Source: Candidatus Eiseniibacteriota bacterium (GTDB lineage Bacteria > Eisenbacteria > RBG-16-71-46 > CAIMUX01 > VGJL01). From it: a stretch of 64,000 nucleotides of DNA. The stretch is taken from positions 71,876-135,875 of the forward strand of contig JAXDAY010000028.1 in assembly GCA_034679345.1 (NCBI GenBank), read 5' to 3'. Of this stretch, positions 16,936-55,798 are shown piece by piece; positions within the stretch are counted from its first letter, which is position 1; each line of letters starts with the position of its first letter. Made by a program: the position numbers and the translations under genes. The notes below the pieces were generated by a model. That model did no database searches. It was not told the DNA's origin and was given only the letters and a program-made list of their open reading frames with translations.

Positions 16936-16987
16936 GTCGTACCTCCTTTGGGAAACACCAGTATGTTGTGAAGGGGCAAGCCGAGAG

Positions 16988-20537: not shown

Positions 20538-20896
20538 TTTCCTTTCTTCTTCTTCCGCTGCTCTTCTTCCTCCAGCCTCCGTAGAATCTCCCGGGGGTCC
20601 TTTCCCGTGTCCCGCATGCGACGGAGCATGTCCCTCACGCCTGGTGTCGCGTCAGCCCACGCCCGAACATCGGGGTCGATCCGTGTATCGAGCTTGGAAA
20701 GCTCCGGCAACGACGCCCCGACCTCTTTCAGCGCGTCCACCATCCGCTTCAGTAGAGGTGGAGGTGGCCTACGCCGGTCGTGCTCGATGTCCGACTGGTA
20801 CGCTGCGGAGATCTCCATCGTCTCTGCGAATTTGCGAAGCGTGATGCCGGCTTCTGTGCGTAAACGTCTGATTTCCTGCCCCAGAGTTGGACCCAT
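20534..20896 (-). CDS. XRE-family HTH transcriptional regulator, partner of ImmA
   Basis: IRRLRTEAGITLRKFAETMEISAAYQSDIEHDRR is an XRE HTH. The C-terminus is lysine-rich. Confidence 0.8.
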   Translation of the reverse strand: MGPTLGQEIRRLRTEAGITLRKFAETMEISAAYQSDIEHDRRRPPPPLLKRMVDALKEVGASLPELSKLDTRIDPDVRAWADATPGVRDMLRRMRDTGKDPREILRRLEEEEQRKKKKGK

Positions 20897-20970
20897 GACC
20901 TTATGTTAGCTTACGATTGTGAACAAGTCAATCCCTGTCACTCAGAAGACTACCTACCGATTTGAAGGGC

Positions 20971-21414
20971 TCAGTCGGCATCACCTTCTGATTCTTCCTT
21001 GAGGAACCGCCCAATGAGGTCCCTACAGGTCCTGGTCGGCCGGTGCCTCCCCTTCTCCCAGTCGAGCACCGAGCTCGGGTCGACCCCTAGTCGCAGGGCG
21101 AGGTCGGCGTGGGAGAGCCCGAACCGGCGACGGGTCGCCCGAAGCCGTTCTCCGAGCGTGGACCCGGTCTCGGTCGGGTCGTAGCCGAGGAACCGTAGCA
21201 CCCCCGGGAGCGCCCGGAGGTTCGGTGAGGCGGTTCCCGCCTCCCAGTTGAAGACCGTGGTCGGATCGACTCCGATACGCAACGCAACCTCGCGCTGCAG
21301 GAGGCCGAGGTCCAGGCGGCGCTTGCGGACGTGGTCGCCCAGAGAGCGGAGTTCCGTAGGGTATTCCGGCGCAAGGGGTTTCGGGCATCGGAGTTCCAAG
21401 TGGCAGAATGGCAA
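20971..21414 (-). CDS. XRE-family regulator with two tandem HTH domains
   Basis: Two HTH units: LRSLGDHVRKRRLDLGLLQREVALRIGVDPTTVFNWEAG and LGERLRATRRRFGLSHADLALRLGVDPSSVLDWEKG. Confidence 0.75.
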   Translation of the reverse strand: MPFCHLELRCPKPLAPEYPTELRSLGDHVRKRRLDLGLLQREVALRIGVDPTTVFNWEAGTASPNLRALPGVLRFLGYDPTETGSTLGERLRATRRRFGLSHADLALRLGVDPSSVLDWEKGRHRPTRTCRDLIGRFLKEESEGDAD

Positions 21415-21908
21415 CGCAGGGATGTCCCTGCGGATTCCTCGGCGACCCGAGGCGCGCCTGCCAATGCAGCCCCACGCGAATCCAGCAGTACCGTGGCCGT
21501 GTGAGCGGGCCGCTCATGGACCGGATCGACCTCCACATCGAGGTGGCGCGCGTCCCGATCGAGGCGCTCGACAGCGATCAGCCGGGCGAGTCTTCGGCAA
21601 ACGTCCGCCGCCGCGTGATCGCCGCGCGCGAGATCCAGCAGCGTCGCTTCGTGCAGGCGCCGGGCATCCACACGAATGCCCAGATGTCGATCCGTCACCT
21701 GTTCGAGCACGCGCAACCCGACGGGCGCGGGCGCGCGCTGCTCAAGATGGCGGGGGAGCGGATGGGGTTCTCGGGGCGGGCGTTTCACCGCGTCATGCGC
21801 GTCGCGCGCACGATCGCGGATCTCGACGGATGCGAGACGGTGGGAGAGAAGCAGATCGCCGAGGCGATCGGATACCGGGTGCTGGATCGGCAGAGCCCCG
21901 ACTCGTAG
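21408..21908 (+). pseudogene. comM: comM/yifB (Mg-chelatase-like AAA+ competence protein) 3' fragment; the N-terminal ~330 codons are absent
   Basis: GCPCGFLGD...RVSGPLMDRIDLHIEV...FHRVMRVARTIADLDGCETVGEKQIAEAIGYR matches the ComM/YifB C-terminal third. There is an in-frame stop at 21357 and the upstream sequence is not ComM-like. Overlaps the divergent XRE gene start. Confidence 0.8.
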
Positions 21909-25445: not shown

Positions 25446-25840
25446 GCTGAAGCCCTTCCCAAATCCCGCGGCCGGGACGTTGAATCAACATTCCGGCATT
25501 CCAGACCGGGCCGCTTGATGAGCGCACCGGTCGAGTTCCCATAACCCATCGATGCTACGCGGGCTTCCGAGGTGGGTCGAGCCCCTCGACCTCATAAGGC
25601 TTCCTCCTCATGGCGCGGCCATCGGGACCGCCGGAAGTGGGGTCGAGCGCGTGGACACGAAAGCGCATCCACGCGGCGCAGGATCTACGGTAGGGAATCC
25701 TTCGGTGGCTCGCCCGCAAGCTCCCCTGACGGCGCATCTTGCGGCGACGGCGGACCGCATCGGGTCGGCCGGCCTGGACCGGCGCCCGCCGCGAGCCTAG
25801 AATTGCCCTGCTCCTGCAATTGGGGAAGGAGGGAGCGATT

Positions 25841-27994
25841 ATGGGCCGCCTGTCGTCCCGGTTGTCGATCCTCTTGGTTCTCGTCTTCGCGATCTCTTCG
25901 AACGCCCCCGCGACTCCACCCGATGCCCCGAGCTTTCTCTCCTCGACGCTGTGGAGCAATCCAAACTCGGTGCGCATCCACGACGACACGGCCTATGTCG
26001 TCTATCCGAACGGTCTCGCCGTCTTCGACGTCTCGGACCCAACGACTCCGGCTCTGCTCGGACGCGCCTACTCGCCTGGTTGGCTGTCACGGCTGGAGCT
26101 GATGTGGCCGTACGCCTTCGTCGGCTCGACCGACCGCATCCGGATCTTCGACGTCTCCGATCCGACGTCCCCGCGCGAGATCAGCTCCTACGCGGCATCG
26201 GGGGAGCTGGGCGACTTCGCGTTCGCCAAGAACCTCGCATACATCGAAGCTGGCGACTACGAGCGGACGCTCGAGATCGTCGACTTCAGCGATCCGACCG
26301 CTCCGGTCCTGCTCGGTTCCTGCGTTGCCCCAGGGATGAGCGTCGCGGTCTCCGGGGAGTACGTCTATTTGCCGTCGTACCACGAGGGTGTCTTCATCGT
26401 CGACGTGTCCGACCCTCATCAGCCATATGTGGCCGGTCATTGGGACATGGGGATCTTCTTCACGATTCGCGTTCACGGGGACCGCGCCTACTGCATCTGG
26501 AACAGCGGCGAGGAAGAGCAGGGGGAGAACGGTGAGGATCTGCGCGACGATAGCGGCGTGATCGTCTATGACATTTCCGAACCGTTCGAGCCGGTCTACC
26601 TCGGGGAATACCGGGCGCAGTTCGGTGCGGAGTGGGTGAGCGAAATCTACTTCGATGGCGGCCTCGCCTACCTCACCCCCGGCCCTGGAACCGCCCTGAT
26701 CCTGGACTTCTCCGATCCTTCGAATCCGGTCGTTGTCGGCAACCTCGTCACCGACGGCGACTTCCGGGATCTCGATTTCCAGGGCGATGTGATGTACATC
26801 GCCGACGGGCGCAACGGCCTGGTCAGTGCGGACGTGAGCGACCCGGCCGAGCCGTCCGTCCTCGGGAGTTGGTGGGAGGCTTCGTACCCTTCGGGAGTCG
26901 CCGTCGACGATCGGGCCGCATTCATCGCCGACGGGGTTTTCGGCCTGCACGTCCTTGACGTCCACGATCCCCTCCATCCCGTCGTGATCTCGCGGCTTCC
27001 GATGATCGATCCTCCGGACAACCTGGACGTGGCCGGCGAGTATGCGATTGGCTGGGACTCTCAGACCGGAATCGACGTCATCGATGTCGCCGCGCTCGGT
27101 CAACCGGAGCGGGTCGCGCACCTGGACGTTCCGGCCAGCGGGCTCGCCGTCGCAGGCGACGTCGCGTATGTCGTCCGAAGCGCCCAGTTCACCTCGATCG
27201 ATCTCTCCGATCCGCGCCATCCCATGGTCCTCGGCGGCTGCGCAATTCCTGAGTACGCGGGTTACGATGTCTGCGCGCACGGTGGCCTCGCCTACGTTGC
27301 CAACGGGGACGCGGGCCTCGTCATCGTCGACGTCTCGGATCCGGCGAATCCGTTCCGGCGCGGATCCTGCGACCTCTACGACCGGCCTTACAACGTCGTG
27401 ACCGACGGTTCGGTCGTCTACGCGGGCCTCTCGCACTACAAGCTCGGCGTCTTCGACGTCACAAACCCGGACCAGCCATACTTCGTGCGCGAGATCGTGC
27501 TCCCCGGAGGGCTGGGGATGATGCAGATCGTCGAGGATCGCCTCTTCGTCGACGCGACGCCCGGGATCCGCGTCTACGATATCTCGGATCCTCGAGATCC
27601 CGTCGAGGTCGGTAGCGCGGACGTGATTGCCGGGAGGTTCGACATCCACGGGCCGTTCCTCTACTTCGTCGGCGGCTCGTTCCTCGTCCTCGGGCCGGCA
27701 GCGGCGGACGTCAATGCGGAGATCGTGAGCCTCGAAGATCATCTTCGCGTCGTGGCGGCCGACCCCGTGTGCGCCGAGGCGAGGATTCGTGTGCACCTGG
27801 GCCGGGCAGGAGATCTGACCGTCTCGGTCTTCGACCTGGCCGGCCGGCTCGTCGCGACGCTCTACGATGGCGCCGCGGAAGCGGGGGAGCACTCCCTTCG
27901 CTGGGAGCCGGGCCCCGCCCCAGCGGGGGTCTACTTCGTACGGGCCGAGTCTCAGGGACGATTGGCGAGCCGGATGATGCACCGCATCCGGTAG
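25841..27994 (+). CDS. LVIVD-repeat protein with a T9SS-type C-terminal sorting domain
   Basis: ATG at 25841 after GGAAGGAGGGAG. Signal peptide. Repeated G(L/V)xV(F/I/V)DVSDPxxP units. C-terminal VSVFDLAGRLVATL...AGVYFVRA. Confidence 0.8.
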   Translation: MGRLSSRLSILLVLVFAISSNAPATPPDAPSFLSSTLWSNPNSVRIHDDTAYVVYPNGLAVFDVSDPTTPALLGRAYSPGWLSRLELMWPYAFVGSTDRIRIFDVSDPTSPREISSYAASGELGDFAFAKNLAYIEAGDYERTLEIVDFSDPTAPVLLGSCVAPGMSVAVSGEYVYLPSYHEGVFIVDVSDPHQPYVAGHWDMGIFFTIRVHGDRAYCIWNSGEEEQGENGEDLRDDSGVIVYDISEPFEPVYLGEYRAQFGAEWVSEIYFDGGLAYLTPGPGTALILDFSDPSNPVVVGNLVTDGDFRDLDFQGDVMYIADGRNGLVSADVSDPAEPSVLGSWWEASYPSGVAVDDRAAFIADGVFGLHVLDVHDPLHPVVISRLPMIDPPDNLDVAGEYAIGWDSQTGIDVIDVAALGQPERVAHLDVPASGLAVAGDVAYVVRSAQFTSIDLSDPRHPMVLGGCAIPEYAGYDVCAHGGLAYVANGDAGLVIVDVSDPANPFRRGSCDLYDRPYNVVTDGSVVYAGLSHYKLGVFDVTNPDQPYFVREIVLPGGLGMMQIVEDRLFVDATPGIRVYDISDPRDPVEVGSADVIAGRFDIHGPFLYFVGGSFLVLGPAAADVNAEIVSLEDHLRVVAADPVCAEARIRVHLGRAGDLTVSVFDLAGRLVATLYDGAAEAGEHSLRWEPGPAPAGVYFVRAESQGRLASRMMHRIR

Positions 27995-34728: not shown

Positions 34729-36097
34729 TCGCGTACCGGTACTTTCCCGACGGCTCCGCCGAGATCTCGTCCCGCACCTGGACCTCGACCGCGCAATCCT
34801 CGCCCATGGCCCGGCGGATCTTTTCGGCGAGGTCGCGTGCGCGCTCGTGGAATTCGCCGCTCTGCGGCGTGAGCGGAGGTTCCAGGACCAGGTGGATCAC
34901 GACTCGCGACACTTCCTCCTGGATCAGCTGGATCTTCCGGATCCACCCCGCCTTCAAGACGACGCCGACCAGGTGGATGAAGAAGAGGCCCGAGACCAAT
35001 CCGCCGTCGGAACGCAGGAAGGTGTCGGTGACGCGGCCGGTGACCTGCTCGAGGATGGGCCAACCGTTGCGCGAAGCGGGGCAGCTCGCAAAGCGGGCGA
35101 GGTCTCCGATGCGGTACCGGATGAGGGGCATGGCGTAGTTCGTCAGGGAGGTGATGACGACCTCGCCTTCTTCCATCGGCGCCGCGGATGAGCCGTCGCG
35201 GCGCAGGATCTCCACCCATCGAAGGGGAGCGGCCACGACCAATCCCGCCTGCTCCCGGTCCTCGCCTGCGATTCCGCCGAACTCCCTCGCGGCGTAGCGG
35301 TTGAACACCGGGGCGCCGAGGGCGCGTTCGATTGTTTCGCGATGGTGCGGGAGGAGCGAACCCGAGGAGCTCATGATGGAGTCGGGCGCATGGATCGACA
35401 GCTTGGCGCCCGCGACGAAGCAGGAGAATTCGTAGAGGCTGTCGGCGTAGCCGAGAATGTGGCGAGGACGCCACCGGTTGATTCGTTCGCCATATTCCGC
35501 CATCTGCGCGGTCGTCATACGGAAGGAGTTCAGGACGAGCTCGTTCCGGCGCCATCGGTAGAGACGCCGTCTGAGCGGTTCGCGCCCGCCGAGGGTGTCG
35601 CGCTCCGATCCCCAGAGCTTGGCGCGCCGGATGCCCGGGTATGCGCCGATCCACTCGTCGAAGAGACGCTCGATCGCCACCCGCCAGTATCCTTCATCGC
35701 GATCCTGGATGAACTTCACGGGCACGCCGGTCGATCCGCCCGTCGCGTTCAAGATCCAGGATCGCTCGGCGAGATCGTCGGATTGAAGCCGCTCGAACTC
35801 CCGGCGCAGGGTTTCACGTTCCAGGCAGGGGATGTCCGTGATGGACCGGACGCGAACGCGGCCGTCGTCCAGTAAGCCCTGCGCTCGAAACAGGTCGCGG
35901 TAGTAGGGAACATGCCGCGCGGCGTGGTCCAGCAGTCGCTGGAGCATCTCCTCTCTGAGCAGGCGCGAGCCCGCTTCGCCAAGGGTCTGCCAACTCTGCA
36001 GCATCTTCAGGTGTCGCTTCCAGATGCGGCGGAGGCCGAGACTCGAATCGAAGAGGAATCTCCGGATCGCCGGGGCTTTGGATTCCGATGAGTTCAT
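34709..36097 (-). CDS. adenylate-forming enzyme, phenylacetate-CoA ligase/F390-synthetase (CapK)-like
   Basis: NATGGSTGVPVKF (AMP-binding P-loop) and ...GYADSLYEF.... Start at the ATG preceded by AGGGGA (the ORF is also open to 36115). Confidence 0.75.
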   Translation of the reverse strand: MNSSESKAPAIRRFLFDSSLGLRRIWKRHLKMLQSWQTLGEAGSRLLREEMLQRLLDHAARHVPYYRDLFRAQGLLDDGRVRVRSITDIPCLERETLRREFERLQSDDLAERSWILNATGGSTGVPVKFIQDRDEGYWRVAIERLFDEWIGAYPGIRRAKLWGSERDTLGGREPLRRRLYRWRRNELVLNSFRMTTAQMAEYGERINRWRPRHILGYADSLYEFSCFVAGAKLSIHAPDSIMSSSGSLLPHHRETIERALGAPVFNRYAAREFGGIAGEDREQAGLVVAAPLRWVEILRRDGSSAAPMEEGEVVITSLTNYAMPLIRYRIGDLARFASCPASRNGWPILEQVTGRVTDTFLRSDGGLVSGLFFIHLVGVVLKAGWIRKIQLIQEEVSRVVIHLVLEPPLTPQSGEFHERARDLAEKIRRAMGEDCAVEVQVRDEISAEPSGKYRYAISRVSR

Positions 36098-36422
36098 CTC
36101 GATTCGTCCCCTCATCAGAGTCGACGGATTTGATCCGCCGATCCCCCGTGCCGGTGATGCAACCGCTCGGCGTGAGCCGGCCTCGCGGCGCCGATCGAGC
36201 GCGGGCGCCGCTTCCGACCGCGCGCCATGGTATCACGATCTCGACGCGTCCTGCGTTTTGGGTCCAGTCCAAATTGGATCGTTTCGAGTGCGCCACATCG
36301 CCGGCTTCGCTGGTGCGGCGCCCCCGGTTGCGCTAGAATCGTTCCGGCCGAGACGACCGCTCTCGTCGCGATCGAGTTGTGAAGCGCGTGGGATCATCCC
36401 GAGTGAGACGGAGGTACCCTCC

Positions 36423-38654
36423 ATGAAATCGCACTGCCTCGCCCTTGGTCTCTTGCCAATCCTGAGCCTGCTTGCTGCCGCTCCGGGGCTGGCCGACTGC
36501 GTTGACTATGAGGACCACTTTCATCTCGAGGCGTCGCTCGAACTGCCTGGCGCGGCGTTTGGGATCGCAGTGTCGGAGCACTACGCGTATGTGGCCCAGT
36601 CCTCCTGCCTCGGCGGGCAGTCCTGTCTGGACATCGTGGACATCGAGAACCCTGCCGATCCGCGGGGGATCGGACACATCCAGCTTCCGACCTGGGGGGT
36701 GCGAGTCGCCGTCTCCGGAGGATATGCCTACGTCTCCGAGGAGGGGTATCAACAGGAGACGCCCGCTCTCCAGGTGATCGATGTCTCCGACCCTCAGTCG
36801 CCCAAGACCGTCGGAGCCATCGGCCTGCCGCCGGGCGTAGGTGGAATCGCCGTTTCCGGTTCGCATGCGTTTGTAGCGAACGGCGCGCACGGACTCCAGA
36901 TCATCGATGTATCCGATCCGACGCATCCGCGGCGAAGGGCCCGCCTCGAGACCGATGGTTCCGCGTGCGCCGTTGCCTTCCAGCCTGGCGTGCCCGGATC
37001 GAGACCAAGGTATGCCTATGTCGCCGACGGCTACGAGGGGCTGTTGGTGATCGATCTCGCCAGTCTGAGATTCCCCCGGATCGTCGGCCGCGCGGCCCTC
37101 GGCGAATGGGTCTCTGCCTTGGACCTCGTCGTGTTGGGCGACTATGCTTATGTCGCGGGGGATTGTTCCGGGCTCTTCGTGGTCGACATCTCGGTCCCCG
37201 ATCGACCCGAGGTCGTCGGTCAGGTGGACACACCCGGCTGCGCTTACGGGATCGCTGTGGAAGGCTCGCGTGTCTTCATTGCGGACGACGGGTTCGGCTT
37301 TCAAGTGATCGACGTTTCAGATCCCGTGAACCCGCGCATCGCGGGGAGCGTGAACTGCGCATATATGTACGGCTGCACCGTGGTTGGCGACCATGCATTC
37401 ATTGCGGCCTATGAGCGTGGATTGCAGGTCATCGATGTCGCCGGCGAGGAGAGTGTCCAGCCGATCGGCAGTCTGAGGACGATCGGTCAAGCCCAAGGCC
37501 TGACGGTCTCGGGAAGTCACGCCTTTCTCGCCTGCGGAGAACAAGGACTTCAGGTGGTCGATGTCGCCGAGCCAGAACAACCCGCGCTCGTGGGAGGATT
37601 GGACACGCCAGGATGGGCGAGCCGTCCGACCCTCCTGGGAGACTATGTCTGCTTCCCGGATGGGGGGTCGGTGGTGCGAGTGATCGACATCTCGGACCCG
37701 ACCTTGCCGGAGCAAGTCGCGCGGATCGATACCCACAGGGCAGCGGCGGCGGTGGCTGCGAACGAGAGGCACCTGTTTGTGGCCGAGGACTATTACTTCC
37801 AGATCTTCGACCTCCTCCAACCGTGGCTCCCGGTCCTGGTGGGGAATCTGCCGGAGGTCAATGCCGGTCCGATCACGGTCGGGGGTGACTATGTTTATGT
37901 CGCGGGGTGGAACGAGCTACAGGTCATTGATGTCTCGGACCCCAGCAATCCAGTGCAGGTCGCCGAGATCGCGATGTTCGGGACCACCGGTCTCGCTGCC
38001 TCCGGGTCCTATCTCTTCGTGGCGGTAAACTATATGCCCCGGCTCTGCATCGTGGACATCTCGACCCCTTGCGCGCCTCAGATCGTGAGCAGCGTCGATT
38101 CCTCTTATTGGGTGACGGATGTCACCGTCGCCGGGGACATGGTCTATCTGGCCTCGTACGAGGGCGTCCAAGTCGTCGATGTCGAAGACTGCCTGAATCC
38201 TCATACCCTGGGCGGAGGGGACACTGTTGACCTCGCGAACGGCGTGGTGATCGCGAACGGCGTCGCGTATCTCACTTTGTTCGGTCATGGGACCTTCTCC
38301 GGTCTCGTGATCCTTCCGAGTCAGTGCGCGGGTGGAAACCATCTGGAGACATCCGGTGCATCGGATTCGATGCCGGCGGGCGCTGCCTTCCTGCACGTCG
38401 AACCCAACCCGGTCCGACGGGGCGACCCAGTCCGCTTCACGCTCCCGATAGATGGCTTCGAGCAGGCAAGAATCCACGATGCGACCGGACGGCTGGTAAG
38501 ACGTCTGGCGCTCACTCCAATGTCTCTTGCCTCCCAGCGACTCGAGTGGGATGGGAGTGACGAGCATCGTCGCCCTGTCCCCGCAGGGATCTACTTCATC
38601 CGGGTGGACAATCCCCGATGCAGGATGACATCGCGCGTGGTTGTCCTGGACTGA
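36423..38654 (+). CDS. LVIVD-repeat protein with a T9SS-type C-terminal sorting domain
   Basis: ATG at 36423 after GGAGG. Signal peptide MKSHCLALGLLPILSLLAAAPGLA. GLLVIDLAS/GLFVVDISVP/GFQVIDVSDP/GLQVVDVAEP repeats. C-terminal PNPVRRGDPVRFTLP...GIYFIRV. Confidence 0.8.
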   Translation: MKSHCLALGLLPILSLLAAAPGLADCVDYEDHFHLEASLELPGAAFGIAVSEHYAYVAQSSCLGGQSCLDIVDIENPADPRGIGHIQLPTWGVRVAVSGGYAYVSEEGYQQETPALQVIDVSDPQSPKTVGAIGLPPGVGGIAVSGSHAFVANGAHGLQIIDVSDPTHPRRRARLETDGSACAVAFQPGVPGSRPRYAYVADGYEGLLVIDLASLRFPRIVGRAALGEWVSALDLVVLGDYAYVAGDCSGLFVVDISVPDRPEVVGQVDTPGCAYGIAVEGSRVFIADDGFGFQVIDVSDPVNPRIAGSVNCAYMYGCTVVGDHAFIAAYERGLQVIDVAGEESVQPIGSLRTIGQAQGLTVSGSHAFLACGEQGLQVVDVAEPEQPALVGGLDTPGWASRPTLLGDYVCFPDGGSVVRVIDISDPTLPEQVARIDTHRAAAAVAANERHLFVAEDYYFQIFDLLQPWLPVLVGNLPEVNAGPITVGGDYVYVAGWNELQVIDVSDPSNPVQVAEIAMFGTTGLAASGSYLFVAVNYMPRLCIVDISTPCAPQIVSSVDSSYWVTDVTVAGDMVYLASYEGVQVVDVEDCLNPHTLGGGDTVDLANGVVIANGVAYLTLFGHGTFSGLVILPSQCAGGNHLETSGASDSMPAGAAFLHVEPNPVRRGDPVRFTLPIDGFEQARIHDATGRLVRRLALTPMSLASQRLEWDGSDEHRRPVPAGIYFIRVDNPRCRMTSRVVVLD

Positions 38655-38726: not shown

Positions 38727-39596
38727 TCAGCGATAGAGGACGCGGATCTCGCCCCAGGTCGCATCCTTCATCGCCGTGGGGACGCATGGATTTGGCGTGC
38801 AGTCCATCCATGGCGCCTGCGGCTCTCCCCCTTCGGCCTCGCAATCGACCATGTTCATGATCCGACACTCTCCGTCCGCAAGACAGCAGGCCAGGACCGG
38901 CGTGTGGCAGGGATTCGGATCGCATGAGGATCCCGGTCCCATCCACTCGAACGAATCGGACGCATGGCGGCAGTCGAGAAAGCTCAAAGCCCGGCAGGTT
39001 CCATCGAGGAAGCAGCAGGCCCCCGGATAGGTGTCGCAGCGGTCCGGCTCACACGCGTAGCCGTTGGGAAAACCTCCGGCCGCGAGGCACTCCGCAGTCG
39101 TGTCGTAGAAGGAGCAGGTCCCGTCCTCGAAGCAGCATGCATGGTCGCACCCGGAGTTCGGGCAGGGATTCGGGTCGCAGCTGTCCTCCCCCTCCAACCA
39201 GAAGCAGTAGTCGGGATGCGCGATGCAGTCTTCCTCCGGGAGCAGAAGACAGACCGCGGTGCCGAGGCAGCACGCATAGAAGGGCCCGGGGCAGGGATTC
39301 GGGTCGCAGAGACCGCCGGCGGGCCAACCTCCATGGGCGAAGCACCACTCATCCTCGCAGGCGATCTCTACGCAAGACCCATCGGGAAAGCAGCAGCCGA
39401 CCGGCTGCGGGCAGGGGTTGGGGTCTCAGTCGGCTCCCGGGATGAACGCGCAGCCTCCGGCCTCGAAGCACGCCTCTTCCCCGTCGATCATGATGCAGCT
39501 TCCGTCGGGAAAGCAGCAGATCCCGGGCTCCGCCCGTGTAGCGCATGGGACGGCAAAAGCCAAAAAGAGCAGACCCGAGAGCACGAGACGGGACAT
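38727..39596 (-). CDS. secreted Cys-rich repeat protein interrupted by one in-frame TGA (39426-39428) at a conserved Cys position; selenoprotein candidate or pseudogene
   Basis: ATG at 39596 after GGAGGTGG. Signal peptide MSRLVLSGLLFLAFAVPCATRA. About six repeats of CDPNPC-x-ACCFxDG(T/S)C. The frame continues across the TGA as ...PGAD[TGA]DPNPCPQPVGCCFPDG... into ORF 38727..39197. Confidence 0.6.
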
Positions 39597-39856
39597 GACG
39601 GCCACCTCCTTGAAGCAGGCTGGGCATGCCGCGCCCATTCGAGCGAGCGTCCGAATCTTACGCGCTTCCGGACAGAAGGGCAACCGAGCTGGATTGCCGG
39701 TGAAACAAACCGGTCGCACATCCATTTCGGTTCGCGCCACGCGCCCCCAAGGCTTGGGCATGTACCACTCCTTGAGATGTTGGACTCCGCAGTGGCGGTA
39801 GGGACCAGACACCCTCCCCTCCCGTGCCCTCTCGCCGGCGCGGCCTCGTTCTCCGC

Positions 39857-42224: not shown

Positions 42225-43433
42225 TCAATTGCCGACCTCCACGCTGCGGGCGTCCTCCACGAGCTCCGCGATGACCGGGCTGGTCAGACCCTCGAGAAAC
42301 GCGACGATCGCGTCGACCTCGGCTTGGGTCAGATCCAGTGGTCGAAGGAGCGGATCCAGGCCTTCGTGCGGGACCCCACCCCGGACGTAGTGCAAAACGA
42401 CGTCGCGTAGGCTCCGCAGGGAGCCGTCGTGCATGTAGGGAGCGGTAAGGGCGACATTCCGGAGGCTCGGCGTCTTGTAGCTCCAGCGATCCTGCGGATC
42501 TCCGGTCGCCTCGAAGCGACCCCGATCCTCCTGCGGGGGATCGCCGATGCTCCGAAGCGTCTCCCGTGAGACCGACACCTGGATTCCGGACGCGATCTCC
42601 ACAGGGACTCGGGCGGTGTCCCGGGACACCGCCTCGGCGCCCATGTATCCGATCCCCGTGTCGTGGAAAAGGTCATCCGTCAGCAGCGCATGGTCCTCAC
42701 CGACACGATGGCAGGAGGCGCACCCCGCCCTTCCGGTGAAGAGCTCGAAACCCCGGACCTGCTCCACCGTGAGGGCTCTCTTCTCCCCTCGGTAGCGCCA
42801 TCGATCGAACGGCGAGTCTCCCGCTACAAGCGTTCGCTCCCAGCTCGCCAGGGCCTGCGCGAGCCTCTCGGGCGACGCCCTCCCGCCGAAGGCGCGCTCA
42901 AAGAGACCGTCGTAATCAGGCAGCTCGGCGATCCGCGCGATGACGGAGTTCAAGTCGGGATTCGCCATCTCCCGGTAATCGACGAGCGGGTCCAGCGCCT
43001 GCGCTTCCAGGGTGGGACGTCGACCGTCATGGAAGGCATGCGGGATGTAGGCTGCGTTCAAAAGCGTCGGGGCATTGCGCCGCAGACTTCGCCCTCCCAC
43101 CCCGAGCGGACGGGCCAGCTCGTTGTTCGTGAAGCCCTGCTCTGGGATGTGGCACATCGCGCACGACATCGTGCTGTTGACTGACATCCTCCGATCGAAG
43201 AAGAGCTTGCGGCCCAAGGCGACCTTCTCCGGTGTCGGCGGATTCGCCGCAGGGACGGGCACAGGAGGGAGGCCGATCGGAGGCGTCTCGATCCGTTCGA
43301 TGGCCCGCCGGTCGCGCGCCGTCGAGTCAACCGAGTCATCGGCCGTTCCATTGTCGGGGACGATGGCCACCGCGAATACGGCAAGAACGCCCGCGAACGC
43401 GGCCCAACCACATACGCACGGCCACCGGCTCAT
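42225..43433 (-). CDS. mauG: di-haem cytochrome c peroxidase (CCP/MauG family)
   Basis: Two CxxCH haem motifs (CAMCH, CASCH) and an N-terminal signal. Internal ATG at 43433 (the ORF's first codon is GTG). Confidence 0.85.
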   Translation of the reverse strand: MSRWPCVCGWAAFAGVLAVFAVAIVPDNGTADDSVDSTARDRRAIERIETPPIGLPPVPVPAANPPTPEKVALGRKLFFDRRMSVNSTMSCAMCHIPEQGFTNNELARPLGVGGRSLRRNAPTLLNAAYIPHAFHDGRRPTLEAQALDPLVDYREMANPDLNSVIARIAELPDYDGLFERAFGGRASPERLAQALASWERTLVAGDSPFDRWRYRGEKRALTVEQVRGFELFTGRAGCASCHRVGEDHALLTDDLFHDTGIGYMGAEAVSRDTARVPVEIASGIQVSVSRETLRSIGDPPQEDRGRFEATGDPQDRWSYKTPSLRNVALTAPYMHDGSLRSLRDVVLHYVRGGVPHEGLDPLLRPLDLTQAEVDAIVAFLEGLTSPVIAELVEDARSVEVGN

Positions 43434-43446
43434 CCACACGGAGGGA

Positions 43447-44182: not shown

Positions 44183-45517
44183 CTAATTGTAGAGGCTCGC
44201 GGAACCGAAGCGCATGAGATGAGGGCGTCCCAGCTTCTCCGCGGTGAAGTCGACCGCAAAGCGATCCGTGAGGCTCTTCCCGTCCCAGTCGTAGGCCTTC
44301 ACGAACTGCTCGTTGTCGTCCCCCTTCTTGTCCCAGTTGGCGAGGAGCGAACTGCTGCAATACACCCGCTTCCCGTCCCAGCTCTGCGAGACCATGTTGA
44401 GCTGCCTTCCCACGACCATCTCATACGTCTGCACTGGGTGATGCGGGTCAGAGATGTCGAAGGCGCGGATCTTGCCGTCCATGAAGGTGGTGGCGAAGAG
44501 GGTCTTGTCGTCCGCGCTGATGCTGATGTCGACGGGAAGCGGGATGTCCGCCGGATTCCCGATGTCGGCAACGGCCTCGGCCTTCCATTGGCCGTTCTCG
44601 GCCTCGTAGATCAGCCAGAGCTTGGAGGTCAGGGCGGCGGCGGTGAAGGCGTAGGTGTGCTCCTCTCCCCATGCCCAGCGGATCTCGAGAGGCGCGCCCG
44701 GGACCTCGAAGGCTTGCAGTGGCTGGCGGGTGTGCAGGTTCCAGAGCACCACGCTGTGGCCGAAGCGCTTCATCGCTTCCTCGTCCTGCAGCATCTGGCC
44801 GAAGTCCATCATGTAGTTGGACCATCCACTGAAGGAGGAGGTCAGCATCACGTTCTTCCGCGGTAGCGCCCGGAGGTCATAGCCGTATCCGTCCGCGACC
44901 TGCGCGTTGACGCAGTTCTGCGGATCGCTGGCGGTCGGCATCCAATAGGTGGAGACGTAGTTGCCGTCGCTCGTGTACTCGACTAGCGCGGTGCGTCCGC
45001 CGTGGTCCTTGTCGTTCGAGAGCGCGGCGATCATCATCCGACCAGGGAGCGCGTAGTGCCCGTGGGGGCCGACCACGCCTCCGCTCGCCTTCGTGAAGTC
45101 GGAGATCGTCTTCACGAGCTTCGGCATGCCGGGATCCGTGTGCACGTCGAACACGAAGATCTGGCTATCGTCGAGGCCGCCGCCCCAGAAGTAGCGCCTG
45201 TCGTCGGTGAAGCCGCCGTGATGCGCCTCGTGCCGCCCCCCGACCGACGCTACATGGAGCACCTTTCCGTATGTCCTCGAGTTGGGACGCACGTCGATCG
45301 TCACCAGCTTGTCGGACCCATCCCCCAGCCCCTCGACACCGAGCGTCCAGGCATAGAGGAACTCCTCCTGGCCCGAGATCTTGGGCATATAGGGAGACTG
45401 GCAGGTCTCGTCGGCGCGCACGTTTGCGGGCGATCCAGCGAGCAGGAGGAAACCCAATCCAAAAGCCAGCCGGACAACAGAACATCGCATCGATCTTGTG
45501 TGGGGAACCTGAAACAT
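44183..45517 (-). CDS. mtoX: SBP56-family selenium-binding protein / methanethiol oxidase
   Basis: Full-length (444 aa) SBP56 layout with a signal peptide. Conserved ...GGFTDDRRYFWGGGLDDSQIFVFD..., ...HGHYALPGRMMIAALSN... A GAGGT RBS precedes it. Confidence 0.85.
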   Translation of the reverse strand: MFQVPHTRSMRCSVVRLAFGLGFLLLAGSPANVRADETCQSPYMPKISGQEEFLYAWTLGVEGLGDGSDKLVTIDVRPNSRTYGKVLHVASVGGRHEAHHGGFTDDRRYFWGGGLDDSQIFVFDVHTDPGMPKLVKTISDFTKASGGVVGPHGHYALPGRMMIAALSNDKDHGGRTALVEYTSDGNYVSTYWMPTASDPQNCVNAQVADGYGYDLRALPRKNVMLTSSFSGWSNYMMDFGQMLQDEEAMKRFGHSVVLWNLHTRQPLQAFEVPGAPLEIRWAWGEEHTYAFTAAALTSKLWLIYEAENGQWKAEAVADIGNPADIPLPVDISISADDKTLFATTFMDGKIRAFDISDPHHPVQTYEMVVGRQLNMVSQSWDGKRVYCSSSLLANWDKKGDDNEQFVKAYDWDGKSLTDRFAVDFTAEKLGRPHLMRFGSASLYN

Positions 45518-45809
45518 TCTTCACTACCTCATTGAGATTCAAAAGGGTGGATGCCATTTGCGGACTGTGGAGCATACCAGGCCGGAGCCTGGTAGCGTCG
45601 TGAGTTATTCACATACGAATCAAGCCCTCGCGTCCGGTTTTCTTATGCCTGGGGAAGCGGAACCAAGTCCGGTCGACGTGGACCCCATCAGACACGGACG
45701 AGGCGAACCAGGGGGATTCCCAACTGCCCGCATGTTCGCTATCCTTGATGGGCGCGCAAGCAGCCCATACCGGCTGTCGCCCTGGATCCACGCGTGGAGG
45801 GAAGATGCC

Positions 45810-47276
45810 ATGAGACGGATCGGTGAGCCATCGCGCCGTAGTTTGCGAACTCGGACAGGGGTGCTCGTCGCCTGTGTCGCCGTCATGCTCTCGGCCCAGA
45901 CCGCGTGGTCGCAATCGAGCGAGCGCGGTCTCTTCGTGGCGAACAACGGGAACCTCGAAGGGAGCGTCACGGCCTTCCGCGTGAACGCCGACGGGACCCT
46001 CGCGCTATTGAACCGGATCGTCACGGGGACGCGTCCGACGATCAACGATCCGTGCCCCGGCTGCAATCCCTACGAGATCTCGATATCTCCAAACGGCCGC
46101 TACCTCGCCACGGGCCATGCGGCAAGCAACGATCCGATCCAGCAGATCTCCGTCTTCGAGATCGCGTCCGACGGGACGATCGATCAGATCGGCGCTTTCC
46201 AGGTCGGCGGAACTCCGATGGACCTGGTCTGGCCAAGTGACGAGCTGTTGGCCGCGCTGAGGACGAACCCGAGCCCCGATCAGGTCGTCGTCTACCGATT
46301 CGATCCCATGGGGCCGAGCCTCAGCGAGATCGAGTTCGAAAGCGTCGGCACCTTCTGCAGCTACCTCGCGATCCACCCGATCCAACCGGTGCTCTACGTG
46401 AACGACTCTGGAAGCGCTCGCCTGATTCGCGTCTTCGCCGTGGCTCCCGACGGAACCCTCACCCTGATCGACAGCGAGCCGACGGGGACGTACTACGGCC
46501 TCGAGCTCGCCCTCTCAAACGACGGGACGAAGCTCTACGCCGCGGGCGGCATCACGGAGGTCGTCCTCGGCTACGAGGTTGCGCCGGATGGGTCGCTGAG
46601 CCCCTTGGCTGACTCGCCCTTCCCCGAGTCGGGAGACTCCCCCTCGAACCTCTATTGCAGCCCGGACGACCGCTATCTCCTGGTCGGCCACGGCACCGAC
46701 GCCACCCTGCGCAGCGCCGCGATTGACCCGTCGACCGGCGATCTTGCTTACACCGGCGCCGTCTTCGACGTGGGGCTTCAGGGCACCCTGGGGGATGTCT
46801 CGGCGATGGACGACCTCGTCTTCGTCACCGACAATTCGAGCGCGATCGACGGCCTCATGGGCGTCTATTCGCTCACGCTGACTTCGGAGGGGTCGTTCAT
46901 CCAAAACGGCATGATCCAATCGACTGGAGGCATCGCCCCGCGATCGACCGCCGCATGGAAGCCGAGCGCGGCCGGCGTCGAGTCCGCCTCGCTTCCCGGC
47001 GCGATGGCGCGCCCGCGCGTCTTCCCGAATCCTTCCATGCGCGGAGTGACGATCGCCTACAGCCTCGAGCGCCCGGCGCTCATCCGGATCGAGATCCTGG
47101 ATGTCGGCGGCCGGGTCGTGCGCCATCTCGGCGAACGCGCGGCGGCCGCGGGCGATTTCGGGATCGACTGGGACGGCGCCGACGACACGGGCGAGCGCGT
47201 GGCCTCCGGAGTCTACTTCGTTCGGATCCGCTCGGGACACGGGCAGGATAGAGAGCGAATCGTCCTGACACGCTGA
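45810..47276 (+). CDS. lactonase-type 7-bladed beta-propeller protein with a T9SS-type C-terminal sorting domain
   Basis: ATG at 45810. Signal peptide. 6-phosphogluconolactonase-like propeller repeats. C-terminal PNPSMRGVTIAYSL...ILDVGGRVVRHL...SGVYFVRI. Confidence 0.75.
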   Translation: MRRIGEPSRRSLRTRTGVLVACVAVMLSAQTAWSQSSERGLFVANNGNLEGSVTAFRVNADGTLALLNRIVTGTRPTINDPCPGCNPYEISISPNGRYLATGHAASNDPIQQISVFEIASDGTIDQIGAFQVGGTPMDLVWPSDELLAALRTNPSPDQVVVYRFDPMGPSLSEIEFESVGTFCSYLAIHPIQPVLYVNDSGSARLIRVFAVAPDGTLTLIDSEPTGTYYGLELALSNDGTKLYAAGGITEVVLGYEVAPDGSLSPLADSPFPESGDSPSNLYCSPDDRYLLVGHGTDATLRSAAIDPSTGDLAYTGAVFDVGLQGTLGDVSAMDDLVFVTDNSSAIDGLMGVYSLTLTSEGSFIQNGMIQSTGGIAPRSTAAWKPSAAGVESASLPGAMARPRVFPNPSMRGVTIAYSLERPALIRIEILDVGGRVVRHLGERAAAAGDFGIDWDGADDTGERVASGVYFVRIRSGHGQDRERIVLTR

Positions 47277-50841: not shown

Positions 50842-51229
50842 CGTCCCTCGATCTCTCGGACTGCGTCCGGGTCCTGTCCGATCGGACGGCCCCAGGGTAC
50901 ACCCGCCCCCTGCGCGGCGCACAGACTCCTACCCCGACTCCTCGTCGATCCAGATTTCTCGGCGGATCTGACGGACATCTAATCTATTGAAATATAATCA
51001 GTTATGTCGGCTCGTCAGGCTTGACGAACCGAATCCCCTCCCCCGGAGAGGCAGCCCGCGGCCACGAGAATATAACTCGTTCTGTCGCATCATGTTACAT
51101 CACTTCTCGAATGGGCACGATCCCTGCGATCGGAGGGTGGACATGCGGCCTCGCATCCATCGGCCGCAACTTGGCCCAGGAAGGGGATCCCGCTTGGCGG
51201 CGCCCCTTCGAACCGGAAGGAGAAACGAG

Positions 51230-54200
51230 ATGAAGCGGTTGAGTCGGACGTCGTGTCTGTTGGCCATCGCCCTGTCGCTCGTCGCAGGGGCCCTCCCCGC
51301 CGTCGGCCAGGGGAATCTTGCGGCTCCCGGGGCCCGCGCGGTGCGGTTCGGGGGCGAGTTGTTCCCGCTCATCCCCCGGGCCGATCGGGTGGCCATCGCC
51401 TTCGAAGAGGACGCTGACGCGGCGCTGCGCGATGCCGCGATCGCCCGCCACCCGATCCTGGCCAGTGCCCGCGAGATCGAATCGCTTCCCGCGCCCCAGA
51501 TCCGGATCTACGAAATCGCGCCCTCTGATCCGATCGGCCTGCAGTCGGCCTCGCTCGCGCTCGCGGCCGATCCAGCCATCCGCCAAGCGACCGGCGTCTA
51601 CATGCTCGGCGAGATCGAGGTGATCCCGACCGATCGCCTCTTCGTCCAGCTCCGCGCGGGTGTCGACGAGACGCTGATCGAGGAGATCGCATCGCGTCTC
51701 GGTCTTGCGATCGTCGAGAAGACCGCTTGGCGCGATGGGAACTTCGTCTTGAGCGCGGCGCGCCATCCGCAGCTTGACGCGATCGGCGCCGCGGAGGCGG
51801 TCCTCGCCGATCCCGCGGTCGAGTTCTCCCACCCCGATTTCATCCGTCGCGTGCCCACCCTGGCGGCCGTTCCGGACCCCCTGTTCCCGCAACAGTGGAA
51901 TCTCGAGAACCTCGTGCGGCGCCGTCCGATCTGGGCGATCGACGGCGACACGGACGCGCGGGAGGGCTGGGCGATCCAATCGGGCTGCAACGGCGCCACC
52001 ATCGCGATCCTCGACGAGGGGGTCGACATGGGCCACCCCGACTACCAGGCGAATCTCGATGCGGCCAACGCGTGGGACTTCTGCTTCAACGACAACGATC
52101 CGAGCCCCCGGTCGTACGACGCCCACGGCACCGCCTGCGCCGGCATCGCCGCTGCGATCTCGAACGGCATCGGAATCGCAGGGGTTGCCCCGGGAGCCCG
52201 GATCCTGCCGATCCGGATCGCCTACCACGCGCAGCAAGGAGATCGATTCTGGGTGACGACCGACGATTGGCTCTCGGATGGGATCGCCTGGGCCTACCAG
52301 CATGGGGCCGACGTCCTGAGCAACTCCTGGGGATCGGGGGGACCGTCGGATCAGATCCACGCGGCGATCCGCGATGCCGTGACGCACGGCCGGGGCGGGC
52401 TCGGCGCCGTCGTCGTCTTCGCCGCCGGGAACTCCTACAACCCCTCCCCTGCCTATCCCGCGATCTATCCCGAGACGATCTGCGTCGCGGCTACCACTCC
52501 ATGCGACTCGCTCAAGGCCCCATGCGATTCGACGCAGGCGGCTACGAGCTGCGACGGGGAATGGTGGTGGGGCAGCAACCATGGCCCTGGGACCGATCTC
52601 GCCGCTCCCGGAGTCCTGATCCCCGCGACCGACATCCGCGGGGCCGACGGCTATGCCCCGGGCGATTACAATACGAGCTTCAACGGCACCTCCTCGGCCA
52701 CGCCCCAGGTCGCGGGTCTCGCCGCGCTTCTGATCTGCAAGTTCCCGCACTGGGAAGGCGCCGAGATCCGCTCGCGGATCGAGCAGACCTGCGACAAGGT
52801 GGGAGGCTACGCCTATGACGCCGCGACCGGGATCAGCGAGGAGCTGGGCCATGGCCGGATCAACATCTATCGCGCTCTCTCCGGCAAGCCGCAGGTCGAG
52901 TGGGGCCCGCGCCCCGATCACCCGAGCGTTTACCGCGACGAGGGCGACGCCGAATCTCCGTATCCTCCAGCCTCCCACGAGTCGGCGGCCTTCGAATGGC
53001 TGGGCGATGAGTTCAGCCCGGAGGCAGGTCCCGACGCCGCCGAGGATCCGGACGGGATCGGCAACCGCTCGGGACGCGACGCGTTCGACGACGGCGTGCG
53101 CTTCTTTCCGCCGTATGTCCCGGGACAACCCGGACAGATCGAGGTGACCGTCTCGGTCGAGGACCCGAACGCCCCGCGCTACCTGCCGGGCCCGGACTCG
53201 CTTCGCATCGATGTCTGGTTCGACTGGGAGAGCGACGGGTCCTGGTCGCAGCCGCACGACTGGGTCGTGCAGAACTTCCGCGTGAATCCTCCCTCCTGGG
53301 GCGGCGCGCGCGAGCGGACGTTCACGCTTCACTTCATGGTCCCCGATGCGCCGATCGGCTGGCATATCCAGGATGGCCAGGCGGGAAAGTTCCTGAACGT
53401 CCGCGCGCGCCTCACCTACCGAGAGACCGTCTCCGCGTCGGACCAGGCGCTCGACGCCGGGGAGGTGGAAGATCATCGGTTCGTGAACTTCGTGGAGATG
53501 TTCGATCCCGGCGCGGGGCACATGACCACTGTCCCGCAAGGATGCGACCCCTGGGAGTGGGTCAACGGAATCGCTCCCTGGCAGCCCCAGCCCTGCCCCG
53601 CGCCGTTCCTGCCGGATGGGGGATCGAACGGCTACATGACCGCCGCGATCTACAACCCGATCTACCAGGGCGATGCCAACGACGGGCTGCGGACCCCCTC
53701 GTTCGACCTGACCGAGATGACCGAGGCGTTCCTGCGCTTCGAGCACTCGGCGGTGGAGCTGATCACCGGCCGCGTCGCCGTCTACGTGGACGGCCTGCTC
53801 GACTCGGTCGTCGCGACCTATGTGAACATCCCGACGACGCCGCCCGCCTGCGGTCTCGCCTTCACGGAGACGGTCGATCTCTCACCGTTCTGCGGCGACG
53901 GCTTCGACGATGTCTCGATCGCCTTCGAGGTCTACCACGACGAGCCGTGCGGCATCGCCTTCCCGTCGTACCAGGACTGGTTCATCGACAATGTCGTCGT
54001 CTGGGCGCAGGATCGGATCGCCCCCTCCGCCGTCGCCGTCGATGTGACCCCCACGGCGACGGAAAGCGCCGATCTCGGCTGGGACGCGCCGGGGGATGAC
54101 GGAATGCTGCGCCGGGCTCAGCTCTACAACATCCGCTACGCTCCGGAGGCGATCGACGCCTCCAGCTGGCGTCACGCGATGTGGCTGCGCCCCGACATGG

Positions 54201-55798
54201 CCTCCTTGCCGCTCCCCCAGCCCCCCGGAACTCGCGAGAGCGTGAACGTGCGCCGGCTCTCCCCGGGACTCCACCACTTCGCGGTCCGCACGCTCGATGA
54301 GGTGACGAACATCGCCTCGATCGCCGATGGAGGAGATAACCGCCCGCCCGACCAGACCGTGCCGGGCACCCAGACAATCGTCGAAGGCGACACCGTACGC
54401 TTCACGGTGACGGCGACCGATCCCGACCATGATCCCCTCCTCCTCTATTCCGTCCAGCGTCCGTCCGGCTCGACTTATGCCGACAGCGGCAATGGCACGG
54501 CCGGCTTCGAATGGATCAGCCGTTCGAGCGATGTCGGCGAGCACGAGGTGATCCTCGTCGCGCGCGACCCCAACGGCGCGATCGATCGCGACACGGTCGC
54601 GGTGCGAGTCCTGCCGTTTGTGGCGCCCGACTTCGCCGACCACGACGCGGGCAACTGGCAGGCCTCGATGACCGATCAGGGGATCTTCGGATTCCTGGAC
54701 GGGACGCACAGCGCCGGATCGGGATTCGTCTATCCGAAGAACGGCGGCGCGAACCACCTCTACATCGGAGGTCTCTGGGCCGCGCAGAACGCCTCCTTCA
54801 TCGCCAGTCGCGACTACGAAGCCGACCCGGCAAAGGAATGGCGCGTATCGGTCGATCCGCCCGGGAGCATTCAGGTCGGACCGAACTACCACTCCGATCA
54901 GGACATCCGCTCGATCTACACCGACGCCGGCGGATCGACCCCGATGGGAGTCCGGGTGAGCCAGGAGTCCTGGGCGTATTCCGCGCCCGATCTCGACGAC
55001 TTCATCAGCACGCGGACCTGCATGACGAACACCGGCCAGCAGGATCTTCAAGGGGTCTACGTCGGGCTCTTCATGGATTTCGACCTTGGCGGCGACGGTA
55101 TTGACGATCGTGGATCGACCGACCCGGGCCGCGAGATGATCTACCTCACCGATCCTTCCGGGATCCACATCGGCGTGCGCCGTCTGCGCGCCGGAGGGGC
55201 GGAACCGCAAACCGCCAATATCACGTTCGTTCACAACCCGACCTTCGTCTACCCGAACCTGTACATTTCCGACGCCGACAAGTTCGCGTTCCTGAGCGCC
55301 GCCGACGGCGCCCACGCGGTATCGACCGCCGCTTCCCCCAACGACTACAGCGTGCTCGTCAGCATCGGGCCATTCGATCTCGCGAGCGGCGAGACGATCG
55401 AGACCGCCTTCGCCATCGTCGGAGGGACGAGTCTCTCGGAACTGCAGCAGAACGCGGATCGGGCGCAGTTCGCGTACGCGGCGGAAGTGGCGGAGACGGC
55501 CGAGCCTGAGGCGGGGATCGCCCTCACGAGGCTCCTGCCGAATCTGCCGAATCCCTTCCGGACCGAAACGGCGGTCCGCTTCGAGCTGGCGCAGACCGGC
55601 CCCGTGGCGGTCGATGTCTACGATGTCGCCGGACGGCGGGTGCGGAACCTCGTCTCCGGAACACGCGCCGCCGGCGCCCACGCGGTCGTCTGGGACCGCC
55701 GCGACGGCTCGGACCGCGAGGTCGGAAGCGGGGTGTACTTCCTTCGTCTGCGATCCATGGGGCGCACCGAATCGCGCCGGATCGTTCTCATGCGTTAG
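51230..55798 (+). CDS. very large S8 (subtilisin) family peptidase with a T9SS-type C-terminal sorting domain
   Basis: ATG at 51230 after GGAAGGAG. Signal peptide. Subtilase catalytic motifs AILDEGVD, HGTACAGIAAA and GTSSATP. C-terminal PNPFRTETAVRFEL...VYDVAGRRVRNL...SGVYFLRL. Confidence 0.9.
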   Translation: MKRLSRTSCLLAIALSLVAGALPAVGQGNLAAPGARAVRFGGELFPLIPRADRVAIAFEEDADAALRDAAIARHPILASAREIESLPAPQIRIYEIAPSDPIGLQSASLALAADPAIRQATGVYMLGEIEVIPTDRLFVQLRAGVDETLIEEIASRLGLAIVEKTAWRDGNFVLSAARHPQLDAIGAAEAVLADPAVEFSHPDFIRRVPTLAAVPDPLFPQQWNLENLVRRRPIWAIDGDTDAREGWAIQSGCNGATIAILDEGVDMGHPDYQANLDAANAWDFCFNDNDPSPRSYDAHGTACAGIAAAISNGIGIAGVAPGARILPIRIAYHAQQGDRFWVTTDDWLSDGIAWAYQHGADVLSNSWGSGGPSDQIHAAIRDAVTHGRGGLGAVVVFAAGNSYNPSPAYPAIYPETICVAATTPCDSLKAPCDSTQAATSCDGEWWWGSNHGPGTDLAAPGVLIPATDIRGADGYAPGDYNTSFNGTSSATPQVAGLAALLICKFPHWEGAEIRSRIEQTCDKVGGYAYDAATGISEELGHGRINIYRALSGKPQVEWGPRPDHPSVYRDEGDAESPYPPASHESAAFEWLGDEFSPEAGPDAAEDPDGIGNRSGRDAFDDGVRFFPPYVPGQPGQIEVTVSVEDPNAPRYLPGPDSLRIDVWFDWESDGSWSQPHDWVVQNFRVNPPSWGGARERTFTLHFMVPDAPIGWHIQDGQAGKFLNVRARLTYRETVSASDQALDAGEVEDHRFVNFVEMFDPGAGHMTTVPQGCDPWEWVNGIAPWQPQPCPAPFLPDGGSNGYMTAAIYNPIYQGDANDGLRTPSFDLTEMTEAFLRFEHSAVELITGRVAVYVDGLLDSVVATYVNIPTTPPACGLAFTETVDLSPFCGDGFDDVSIAFEVYHDEPCGIAFPSYQDWFIDNVVVWAQDRIAPSAVAVDVTPTATESADLGWDAPGDDGMLRRAQLYNIRYAPEAIDASSWRHAMWLRPDMASLPLPQPPGTRESVNVRRLSPGLHHFAVRTLDEVTNIASIADGGDNRPPDQTVPGTQTIVEGDTVRFTVTATDPDHDPLLLYSVQRPSGSTYADSGNGTAGFEWISRSSDVGEHEVILVARDPNGAIDRDTVAVRVLPFVAPDFADHDAGNWQASMTDQGIFGFLDGTHSAGSGFVYPKNGGANHLYIGGLWAAQNASFIASRDYEADPAKEWRVSVDPPGSIQVGPNYHSDQDIRSIYTDAGGSTPMGVRVSQESWAYSAPDLDDFISTRTCMTNTGQQDLQGVYVGLFMDFDLGGDGIDDRGSTDPGREMIYLTDPSGIHIGVRRLRAGGAEPQTANITFVHNPTFVYPNLYISDADKFAFLSAADGAHAVSTAASPNDYSVLVSIGPFDLASGETIETAFAIVGGTSLSELQQNADRAQFAYAAEVAETAEPEAGIALTRLLPNLPNPFRTETAVRFELAQTGPVAVDVYDVAGRRVRNLVSGTRAAGAHAVVWDRRDGSDREVGSGVYFLRLRSMGRTESRRIVLMR

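Follow-up and report, generated by a model that had tools for sequence, protein, structure and literature searches.

A candidate selenocysteine codon followed by a SECIS-like hairpin in a predicted secreted Cys-rich repeat protein of Candidatus Eiseniibacteriota

The window analysed here is a 64-kb stretch of DNA from Candidatus Eiseniibacteriota. On its minus strand, a frame of 290 codons, stop included, runs from an ATG at 39596-39594 to a TGA at 38729-38727. A sequence-only reading had described this frame as open from 39596 to 38727 apart from a single internal TGA, and our re-reading confirmed this: the sole internal TGA is codon 57 (39426-39428, minus strand), which we propose as a selenocysteine (Sec) codon. 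Translated through this codon, the candidate selenoprotein CDS (38727-39596, minus strand) would encode 289 residues including U57 before reaching its own stop. A Shine-Dalgarno-like AGGAGG (39605-39610, minus strand) lies 8 nt 5' of the ATG, and the equivalent site holds GAAGGAG and AAGGAGG in two orthologous loci described below, L001 and L092. The N-terminus, MSRLVLSGLLFLAFAVPCATRA followed by EPG, resembles a signal peptide with an n-h-c organisation as read from the sequence (codons 1-23; 39528-39596, minus strand), and cleavage is predicted after TRA. In all six N-termini of the Sec type, A-x-A followed by E or D stands directly ahead of GICC. The protein carries this predicted signal peptide and hence would be secreted.

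The protein is built of Cys-rich units, six in tandem and each about 41 residues long (CCFxDGxC...C...GG...C-D-P-N-P-C-P-x-P-x-G). Unit 1 (39396-39521, minus strand) reads ICCFPDGSC...GGCAFIPGAD-U-DPNPCPQPVG, so that the TGA stands at the first Cys of the motif C(D/E/T)P(N/D)(P/R)C. The sequence-only reading had placed it at this same residue and had counted four other units with CDPNPC; the position holds, while the count does not, since three other units have CDPNPC in its exact form (codons 97, 140 and 225) and the remaining two have the variants CEPDRC and CTPNPC. All five other units carry a Cys at the position equivalent to the TGA. The Sec/Cys correspondence that had been proposed is thereby borne out, both in these five paralogous units and in the homologs P0006, P0025, P0032 and P0047. 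The protein ends in WGEIRVLYR (38730-38756, minus strand), an instance of a family-wide tail, WGxI[KR]xx[YF][RK]-COOH, which follows the last repeat immediately at the C-terminus of 94/120 homologs (P0002-P0120) and of which W281 and G282 are invariant in our alignment (A2). Pfam and NCBIfam contain no model for this tail, which may serve as a C-terminal signal for sorting or anchoring. The read-through protein and the repeat regions of its homologs had no Pfam or NCBIfam match at E <= 1, and no profile of a described selenoprotein family in these collections significantly matched the window protein.

The candidate gene is surrounded by an unusually dense set of genes for large secreted proteins of the beta-propeller, LVIVD, FG-GAP and subtilase types (14773-17100, 25739-27991, 36024-38651, 45558-47273 and 50987-55795), which bear FlgD-Ig or Por_Secre_tail C-terminal domains. 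About 5 kb from it, a gene of the SBP56 family (56-kDa selenium-binding protein/methanethiol-oxidase type; Pfam E 1.9e-44; 44186-45517, minus strand) adjoins a gene of the di-haem cytochrome c peroxidase/MauG type (42228-43439, minus strand); the SBP56 gene does not belong to the Sec-insertion machinery. Positions 1-21900 of the window resemble a mobile element, with RNase_H_2-like, DUF932, RadC, PD-(D/E)XK nuclease, DUF3644 and RuvC-like genes, a large serine recombinase (9487-11046) and a GC content that is as low as 0.57-0.61 between 10 and 18 kb. Of a gene of the Mg-chelatase/ComM type, no more than the C-terminal third is present (21408-21905), beside an HTH + IrrE/M78 pair (19803-21414), which suggests that the element was inserted into a comM-like gene. 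The AsnRS encoded in the window gives an ambiguous placement, sharing 76-78% identity with entries of Eisenbacteria and of Vicinamibacterales alike.

A GC3-based gene map of the window holds 44 complete genes, and TGA terminates 25 of them, the candidate gene included. TGA is therefore a normal stop here, as the sequence-only reading had noted, and any recoding would be local, with no global reassignment. A genome-wide reassignment of TGA (codes 4 and 25) was rejected, TGA being a common terminator and the window having a single credible internal TGA. The other TGA junctions of the window (3287, 7165 and others) turned out to be adjacent separate genes (RadC, DUF932) or non-coding frames. Searches with ARAGORN, Rfam and Pfam (the last on 42 predicted proteins) found no selA, selB, selD or tRNA-Sec within the 64-kb window. 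None of the four was found in about 30 kb of ortholog contigs either, and the ortholog loci contained no tRNA.

We then looked at the closest homologs in a search of 5.8 billion clustered proteins. The nearest is a 200-aa "hypothetical protein" of Candidatus Eisenbacteria that covers only 70% of the query. On its contig (L001), a 60-aa gene call lies directly upstream of the 200-aa call and in the same frame, and reading through the stop between them gives ...CAFYPGAD-TGA-DPNPCPQPVGCCFPDGSC..., with the TGA at the same position as in the window. NCBI annotates this gene as two hypothetical proteins, at 9731-9913 (60 aa; MDM7915489.1 / MFB3909564.1) and at 10001-10603 (200 aa; MDM7915490.1 / MFB3909563.1), the latter beginning at an internal TTG 30 codons past the TGA. 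The assemblies of this organism are GCA_041890195.1 and GCA_030372885.1. An identical protein is found on contigs from several separate records of Candidatus Eisenbacteria (L001-L004/L009, L009 being the same contig as L001). With a profile built from the two N-terminal fragments, we found a further four short gene calls (56-61 aa) in metagenomes of ENA and JGI, and each of them terminates at ...GGC(A/D)F(I/Y/F)PGAD. For one of these, L092 (ENA), the DNA could be read: the stop is a TGA, and the repeat frame remains intact for 95 codons more, up to the end of the contig. L001-L004/L009 and L092 thus share the in-frame sequence ...PGAD-TGA-DPNPCPQPVGCCFPDG.... The other three (P0123-P0125, JGI; 56-61 aa) stop at the same ...PGAD residue and are known from gene calls alone, so that the TGA is DNA-verified in the window, L001/L009 and L092. 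The six Sec-type N-terminal fragments share 53-70% pairwise identity and hence represent deeply diverged lineages. Taken together, the TGA has probably been kept in six lineages overall, in three of them as read at the DNA level.

Neither the search of 5.8 billion clustered proteins nor an exhaustive one with HMMER, over 1.84 billion representatives, yielded a Cys (TGC)-type ortholog of the Sec subfamily. The sequence-only reading had named, as an outcome that would speak against a selenoprotein, orthologs that all carry TGC, with this TGA as a unique SNP; the opposite was seen, as all known members of the subfamily carry the stop. Cys occupies the TGA position only in more distant members of the family, including P0006, P0025, P0032 and P0047, which have the same architecture. 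The DNA pattern TGAGAYCCNAAYCCNTGYCC gave 69 matches in 185,579 species genomes, of which L009 was the sole real one, and a gapped DNA pattern gave 13 matches in JGI metagenomes, all by chance; lineages beyond L001/L009 surfaced only through truncated N-terminal gene calls. No other TGA junction was present in L001 or L009, and the CMD/AhpD-like gene of L001, from a family with known Sec forms, is of the ordinary form. P0085, P0104 and P0107, which start in the middle of a repeat, were rejected as TGA-recoded genes, being frameshifted or cut by the end of a contig instead. The Cys-type homolog genes at L087 9100-10900 and L088 2100-3100, from two long-read-style assemblies, change frame in mid-repeat; these switches are probably assembly frameshifts, and the N-terminally truncated calls that result from them mimic truncation at a TGA.

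The Sec-type sequences are also marked by an extra Cys 8 residues before the proposed Sec (Cys49; 39450-39452, minus strand; C-x7-U). This residue is invariant in all six of them, and a Cys at the -8 offset is found in just 2 of 498 units of Cys-type homologs. Further extra Cys residues are present in units 2 and 3 of Sec-type proteins. The co-occurrence of the extra Cys with the Sec position suggests that Sec does not simply stand in for one Cys of a structural disulfide, and that the two residues may form a selenol/thiol pair of their own, C-x7-U.

Downstream of the UGA, the mRNA can fold into the hairpin GCAGCC-GGUC-GGCUGC (39393-39408, minus strand), with a 6-bp stem and the apical loop GGUC at 39402-39399. 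This hairpin had been recognised in the sequence-only reading, with the right stem and loop and slightly different distances: it starts 17 nt after the UGA and not 16, and the UGA-to-loop spacing is 23 nt and not about 22. Its predicted energy is -10.2 kcal/mol. The bSECIS consensus calls for an upper stem of 4-16 bp, a UGA-loop distance of 16-37 nt and an MFE <= -7.5 kcal/mol (PMC13188914, Fig. 2 legend). As had been proposed, the hairpin is compatible with bacterial SECIS models, and it falls within every bound of this one, including the 4-nt loop, GGUC, with G in the first two loop positions; the model is a loose one, as 9.2% of codons in the predicted genes of the window pass it and 3.2% reach -10.2 kcal/mol. 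Among the 40 Cys codons of the gene itself, none is followed by a qualifying hairpin at -7.5 kcal/mol. On both strands of the 64-kb window, this is the sole hairpin with a GGUC loop and a stem of at least 6 bp (0.42 expected), and the chance of a GGUC-capped hairpin of at least 6 bp at the right spacing is about 7e-5 per site.

The stem-loop is invariant in the three DNA-verified lineages (window, L001 and L092). Over the 44 nt that follow the TGA, the window and L092 are identical and L001 differs at one synonymous site. Nucleotide conservation is raised from about -9 to +57 nt around the TGA (39369-39437, minus strand), where identity over 45-nt segments peaks at 0.96 just past the TGA, against 0.5-0.65 elsewhere. 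Codons are identical at 13 of 15 identical residues after the TGA, against a background of 56-62%, an excess of moderate significance (p = 0.02-0.06 per pair). Because the stem is invariant, it provides no covariation evidence either way, and the support for the predicted structure comes from conservation and from agreement with the model rather than from compensatory changes. In its MFE fold, the window also has a lower helix in which the UGA pairs with GGGUCUU; this helix is not conserved in L001 or L092 and was dropped from the model for that reason. Rfam returned nothing relevant, neither for the window at gathering thresholds nor for 39250-39550 at E <= 10, where the only matches were mir-650 and hya, on the opposite strand and at chance level; a generic bacterial SECIS family was absent among the hits.

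The hairpin is encoded by the linker P-Q-P-V-G-C (CCG-CAG-CCG-GUC-GGC-UGC). In the linkers of Cys-type homologs, neither PQPVG nor any Ala-less PQPxG was found (0/389), and 255/389 end in GA before CC. Without the consensus Ala, GGC-UGC can pair with GCA-GCC, and the loop comes from the codon for Val, GUC, a pattern which suggests that the SECIS may have been built from the repeat's own linker codons.

To evaluate selection across the frame, we estimated dN and dS between the window and L001 by the Nei-Gojobori method. The two proteins are about 57% identical over their whole length. Across the whole frame dS is 1.0-1.6 and dN/dS 0.23-0.33. By segment, dN/dS is 0.24 in the mature region ahead of the TGA (codons 26-56), 0.32 over codons 58-133, which offer no codon for a restart, and 0.23 over the rest of the frame. 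Indels are always of whole codons, there are no additional stops or frameshifts, and 39 Cys are aligned (of 41 and 40 Cys positions, the TGA position being counted as Cys). Judged by these substitution rates, the frame is under purifying selection on either side of the TGA.

These results bear directly on what the TGA could otherwise be. The simplest alternative, a fresh pseudogene or a sequencing error (a recent TGC-to-TGA change or a miscall in this genome only), takes a single-base change from the Cys codon of the other units. It can hardly be credited, because two further lineages, verified at the DNA level, carry this TGA, with an ortholog on contigs of several separate records. The lineages differ by a dS above 1, dN/dS is about 0.25-0.3 to either side of the codon, and the frame has neither further stops nor frameshifts. 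The identity of 53-70% excludes that the ortholog contigs are chimeric copies of one sequence, and neither of the large protein searches returned a TGC ortholog of the subfamily. A shared TGA, high divergence and constraint on both halves together imply that the ribosome must read through, which removes the simple nonsense mutation that the sequence-only reading had offered as its second option. A genuine conserved stop would instead yield a short secreted peptide (about 33 residues when mature), with the downstream repeats as a separate gene or an untranslated remnant. The N-terminal fragment is well conserved, and gene callers and NCBI do give two ORFs of 60 and 200 aa. However, purifying selection acts on the 75 codons that separate the TGA from the earliest codon at which the frame could restart (dN/dS 0.32), their Cys positions are aligned in L001 and L092, and the repeat unit is continuous across the TGA. 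Moreover, the part after the TGA lacks both a signal peptide and a ribosome-binding site of its own, while it retains the secreted-repeat architecture of the family and the tail. With both halves constrained at such divergence, a real stop with a short product only is very improbable.

Selection on both halves would also be explained, without any Sec machinery, by SelB-independent read-through, in which a near-cognate tRNA (Trp, Cys or Arg) decodes the UGA at a low level, possibly helped by the hairpin, to give a mixture of short and full-length products that contain no selenium. We regard this as unlikely. The UGA coincides with a Cys position, as is specifically characteristic of Sec/Cys exchange, and the hairpin fits a SelB-type bSECIS in spacing and loop, with GGUC as in fdhF. 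The partner Cys accompanies the UGA in 6/6 lineages, which selenol chemistry would lead one to expect and which would be unexpected if Trp or Arg were inserted.

We therefore favour, at a probability of roughly 0.8, the reading in which codon 57 encodes Sec through SelB/SECIS-dependent insertion in a secreted disulfide-rich repeat protein. Of the two options offered by the sequence-only reading, it is the selenoprotein that the comparative data support. The features by which the field judges new selenoprotein candidates (PMC12013277) are found here, namely homologs with Cys, orthologs with the TGA, conservation of the flanking sequence and a bSECIS. When the ribosome reaches the UGA, SelB carrying Sec-tRNA(Sec) would bind the GGUC-capped hairpin located 17-32 nt downstream within the coding sequence, and would deliver Sec at codon 57 in place of termination. 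Sec would then replace the repeat Cys in the first, N-terminal unit and, together with Cys49, would probably form a selenol/thiol pair, redox-active or metal-binding, at the far end of the array of repeats. The sequences show a conserved in-frame TGA, selection in both halves of the frame, the Sec/Cys pairing with homologs and a conserved hairpin that fits the bSECIS model, whereas we infer that SelB is required, that Sec is in fact incorporated, that the protein is secreted and that Sec has the chemical role given here.

The mechanism is of a known kind; the protein family is undescribed, and public records split the gene into two ORFs. The comparative evidence makes it very likely that these proteins are a new family of secreted selenoproteins in bacteria, at present mis-annotated. 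Gene callers end a gene at UGA and so overlook bacterial selenoproteins systematically. If confirmed, the family would be unlike the usual thioredoxin-fold UxxC enzymes, with Sec in the first unit only and paired with an extra Cys, and it would raise the question of extracellular selenium chemistry. It would also be a clean example of a SECIS arising from existing coding sequence. Our literature search found no indexed paper that links Eisenbacteria with selenocysteine, and a confirmed case would extend Sec usage to a candidate phylum with none reported in the literature searched. More tentatively, and with greater doubt than belief, one may see in this protein the first of a new class of selenoproteins exported by bacteria, in which C-x7-U would form an extracellular selenenylsulfide or metal centre on the tip of a repeat stalk, with a SECIS derived from the linker (Ala lost, Val fixed), and which would provide the first evidence of Sec in Eisenbacteria.

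Among known systems, the candidate gene resembles E. coli fdhF with its UGA140, where an in-frame UGA is likewise followed, within the 16-37 nt range, by a GGUC-loop hairpin inside the coding sequence. The G and U of the fdhF loop are the bases contacted by SelB. The loop lies at +18 nt in fdhF (GCA-GGUC-UGC) and at +23 nt in the window. The stem is a perfect 6-bp GC-rich helix in the window, whereas the predicted apical helix of fdhF is shorter (GCA/UGC) and interrupted by an unpaired base. The host proteins are unrelated, fdhF being a molybdopterin enzyme and the window protein a Cys-rich repeat protein with a predicted signal peptide. We also compared the catalogued families of bacterial selenoproteins (table of PMC13188914; UxxC thioredoxin-fold, AhpD/CMD-like CxxU and selenobacteriocin SGUG families of NCBIfam/Pfam), which share with the candidate gene the Sec/Cys pair, Cys homologs, TGA orthologs and a bSECIS immediately downstream.

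The nearest comparison is with the Cys-type members of the family itself, which gave several hundred matches, with source names, where given, mostly of Candidatus Eisenbacteria or Planctomycetota. Their unit consensus is ACCFxDGxC-x7-C-x3-GG-x-C-D-P-N-P-C-P-x-P-x-G. Like the window protein, P0006, P0025, P0032, P0047 and P0099 have a signal peptide, tandem units of about 41 residues and a WGxIKxxYR tail. P0099, a 391-aa Cys-type protein with an N-terminal domain, four repeats and the tail WGRIRAIYR, is likely a paralog located elsewhere on the window's own contig. Unlike the Sec subfamily, the Cys-type members carry Cys (TGY) at the TGA site, almost always lack the Cys at -8, and have linkers that end in GA and not in PQPVG.
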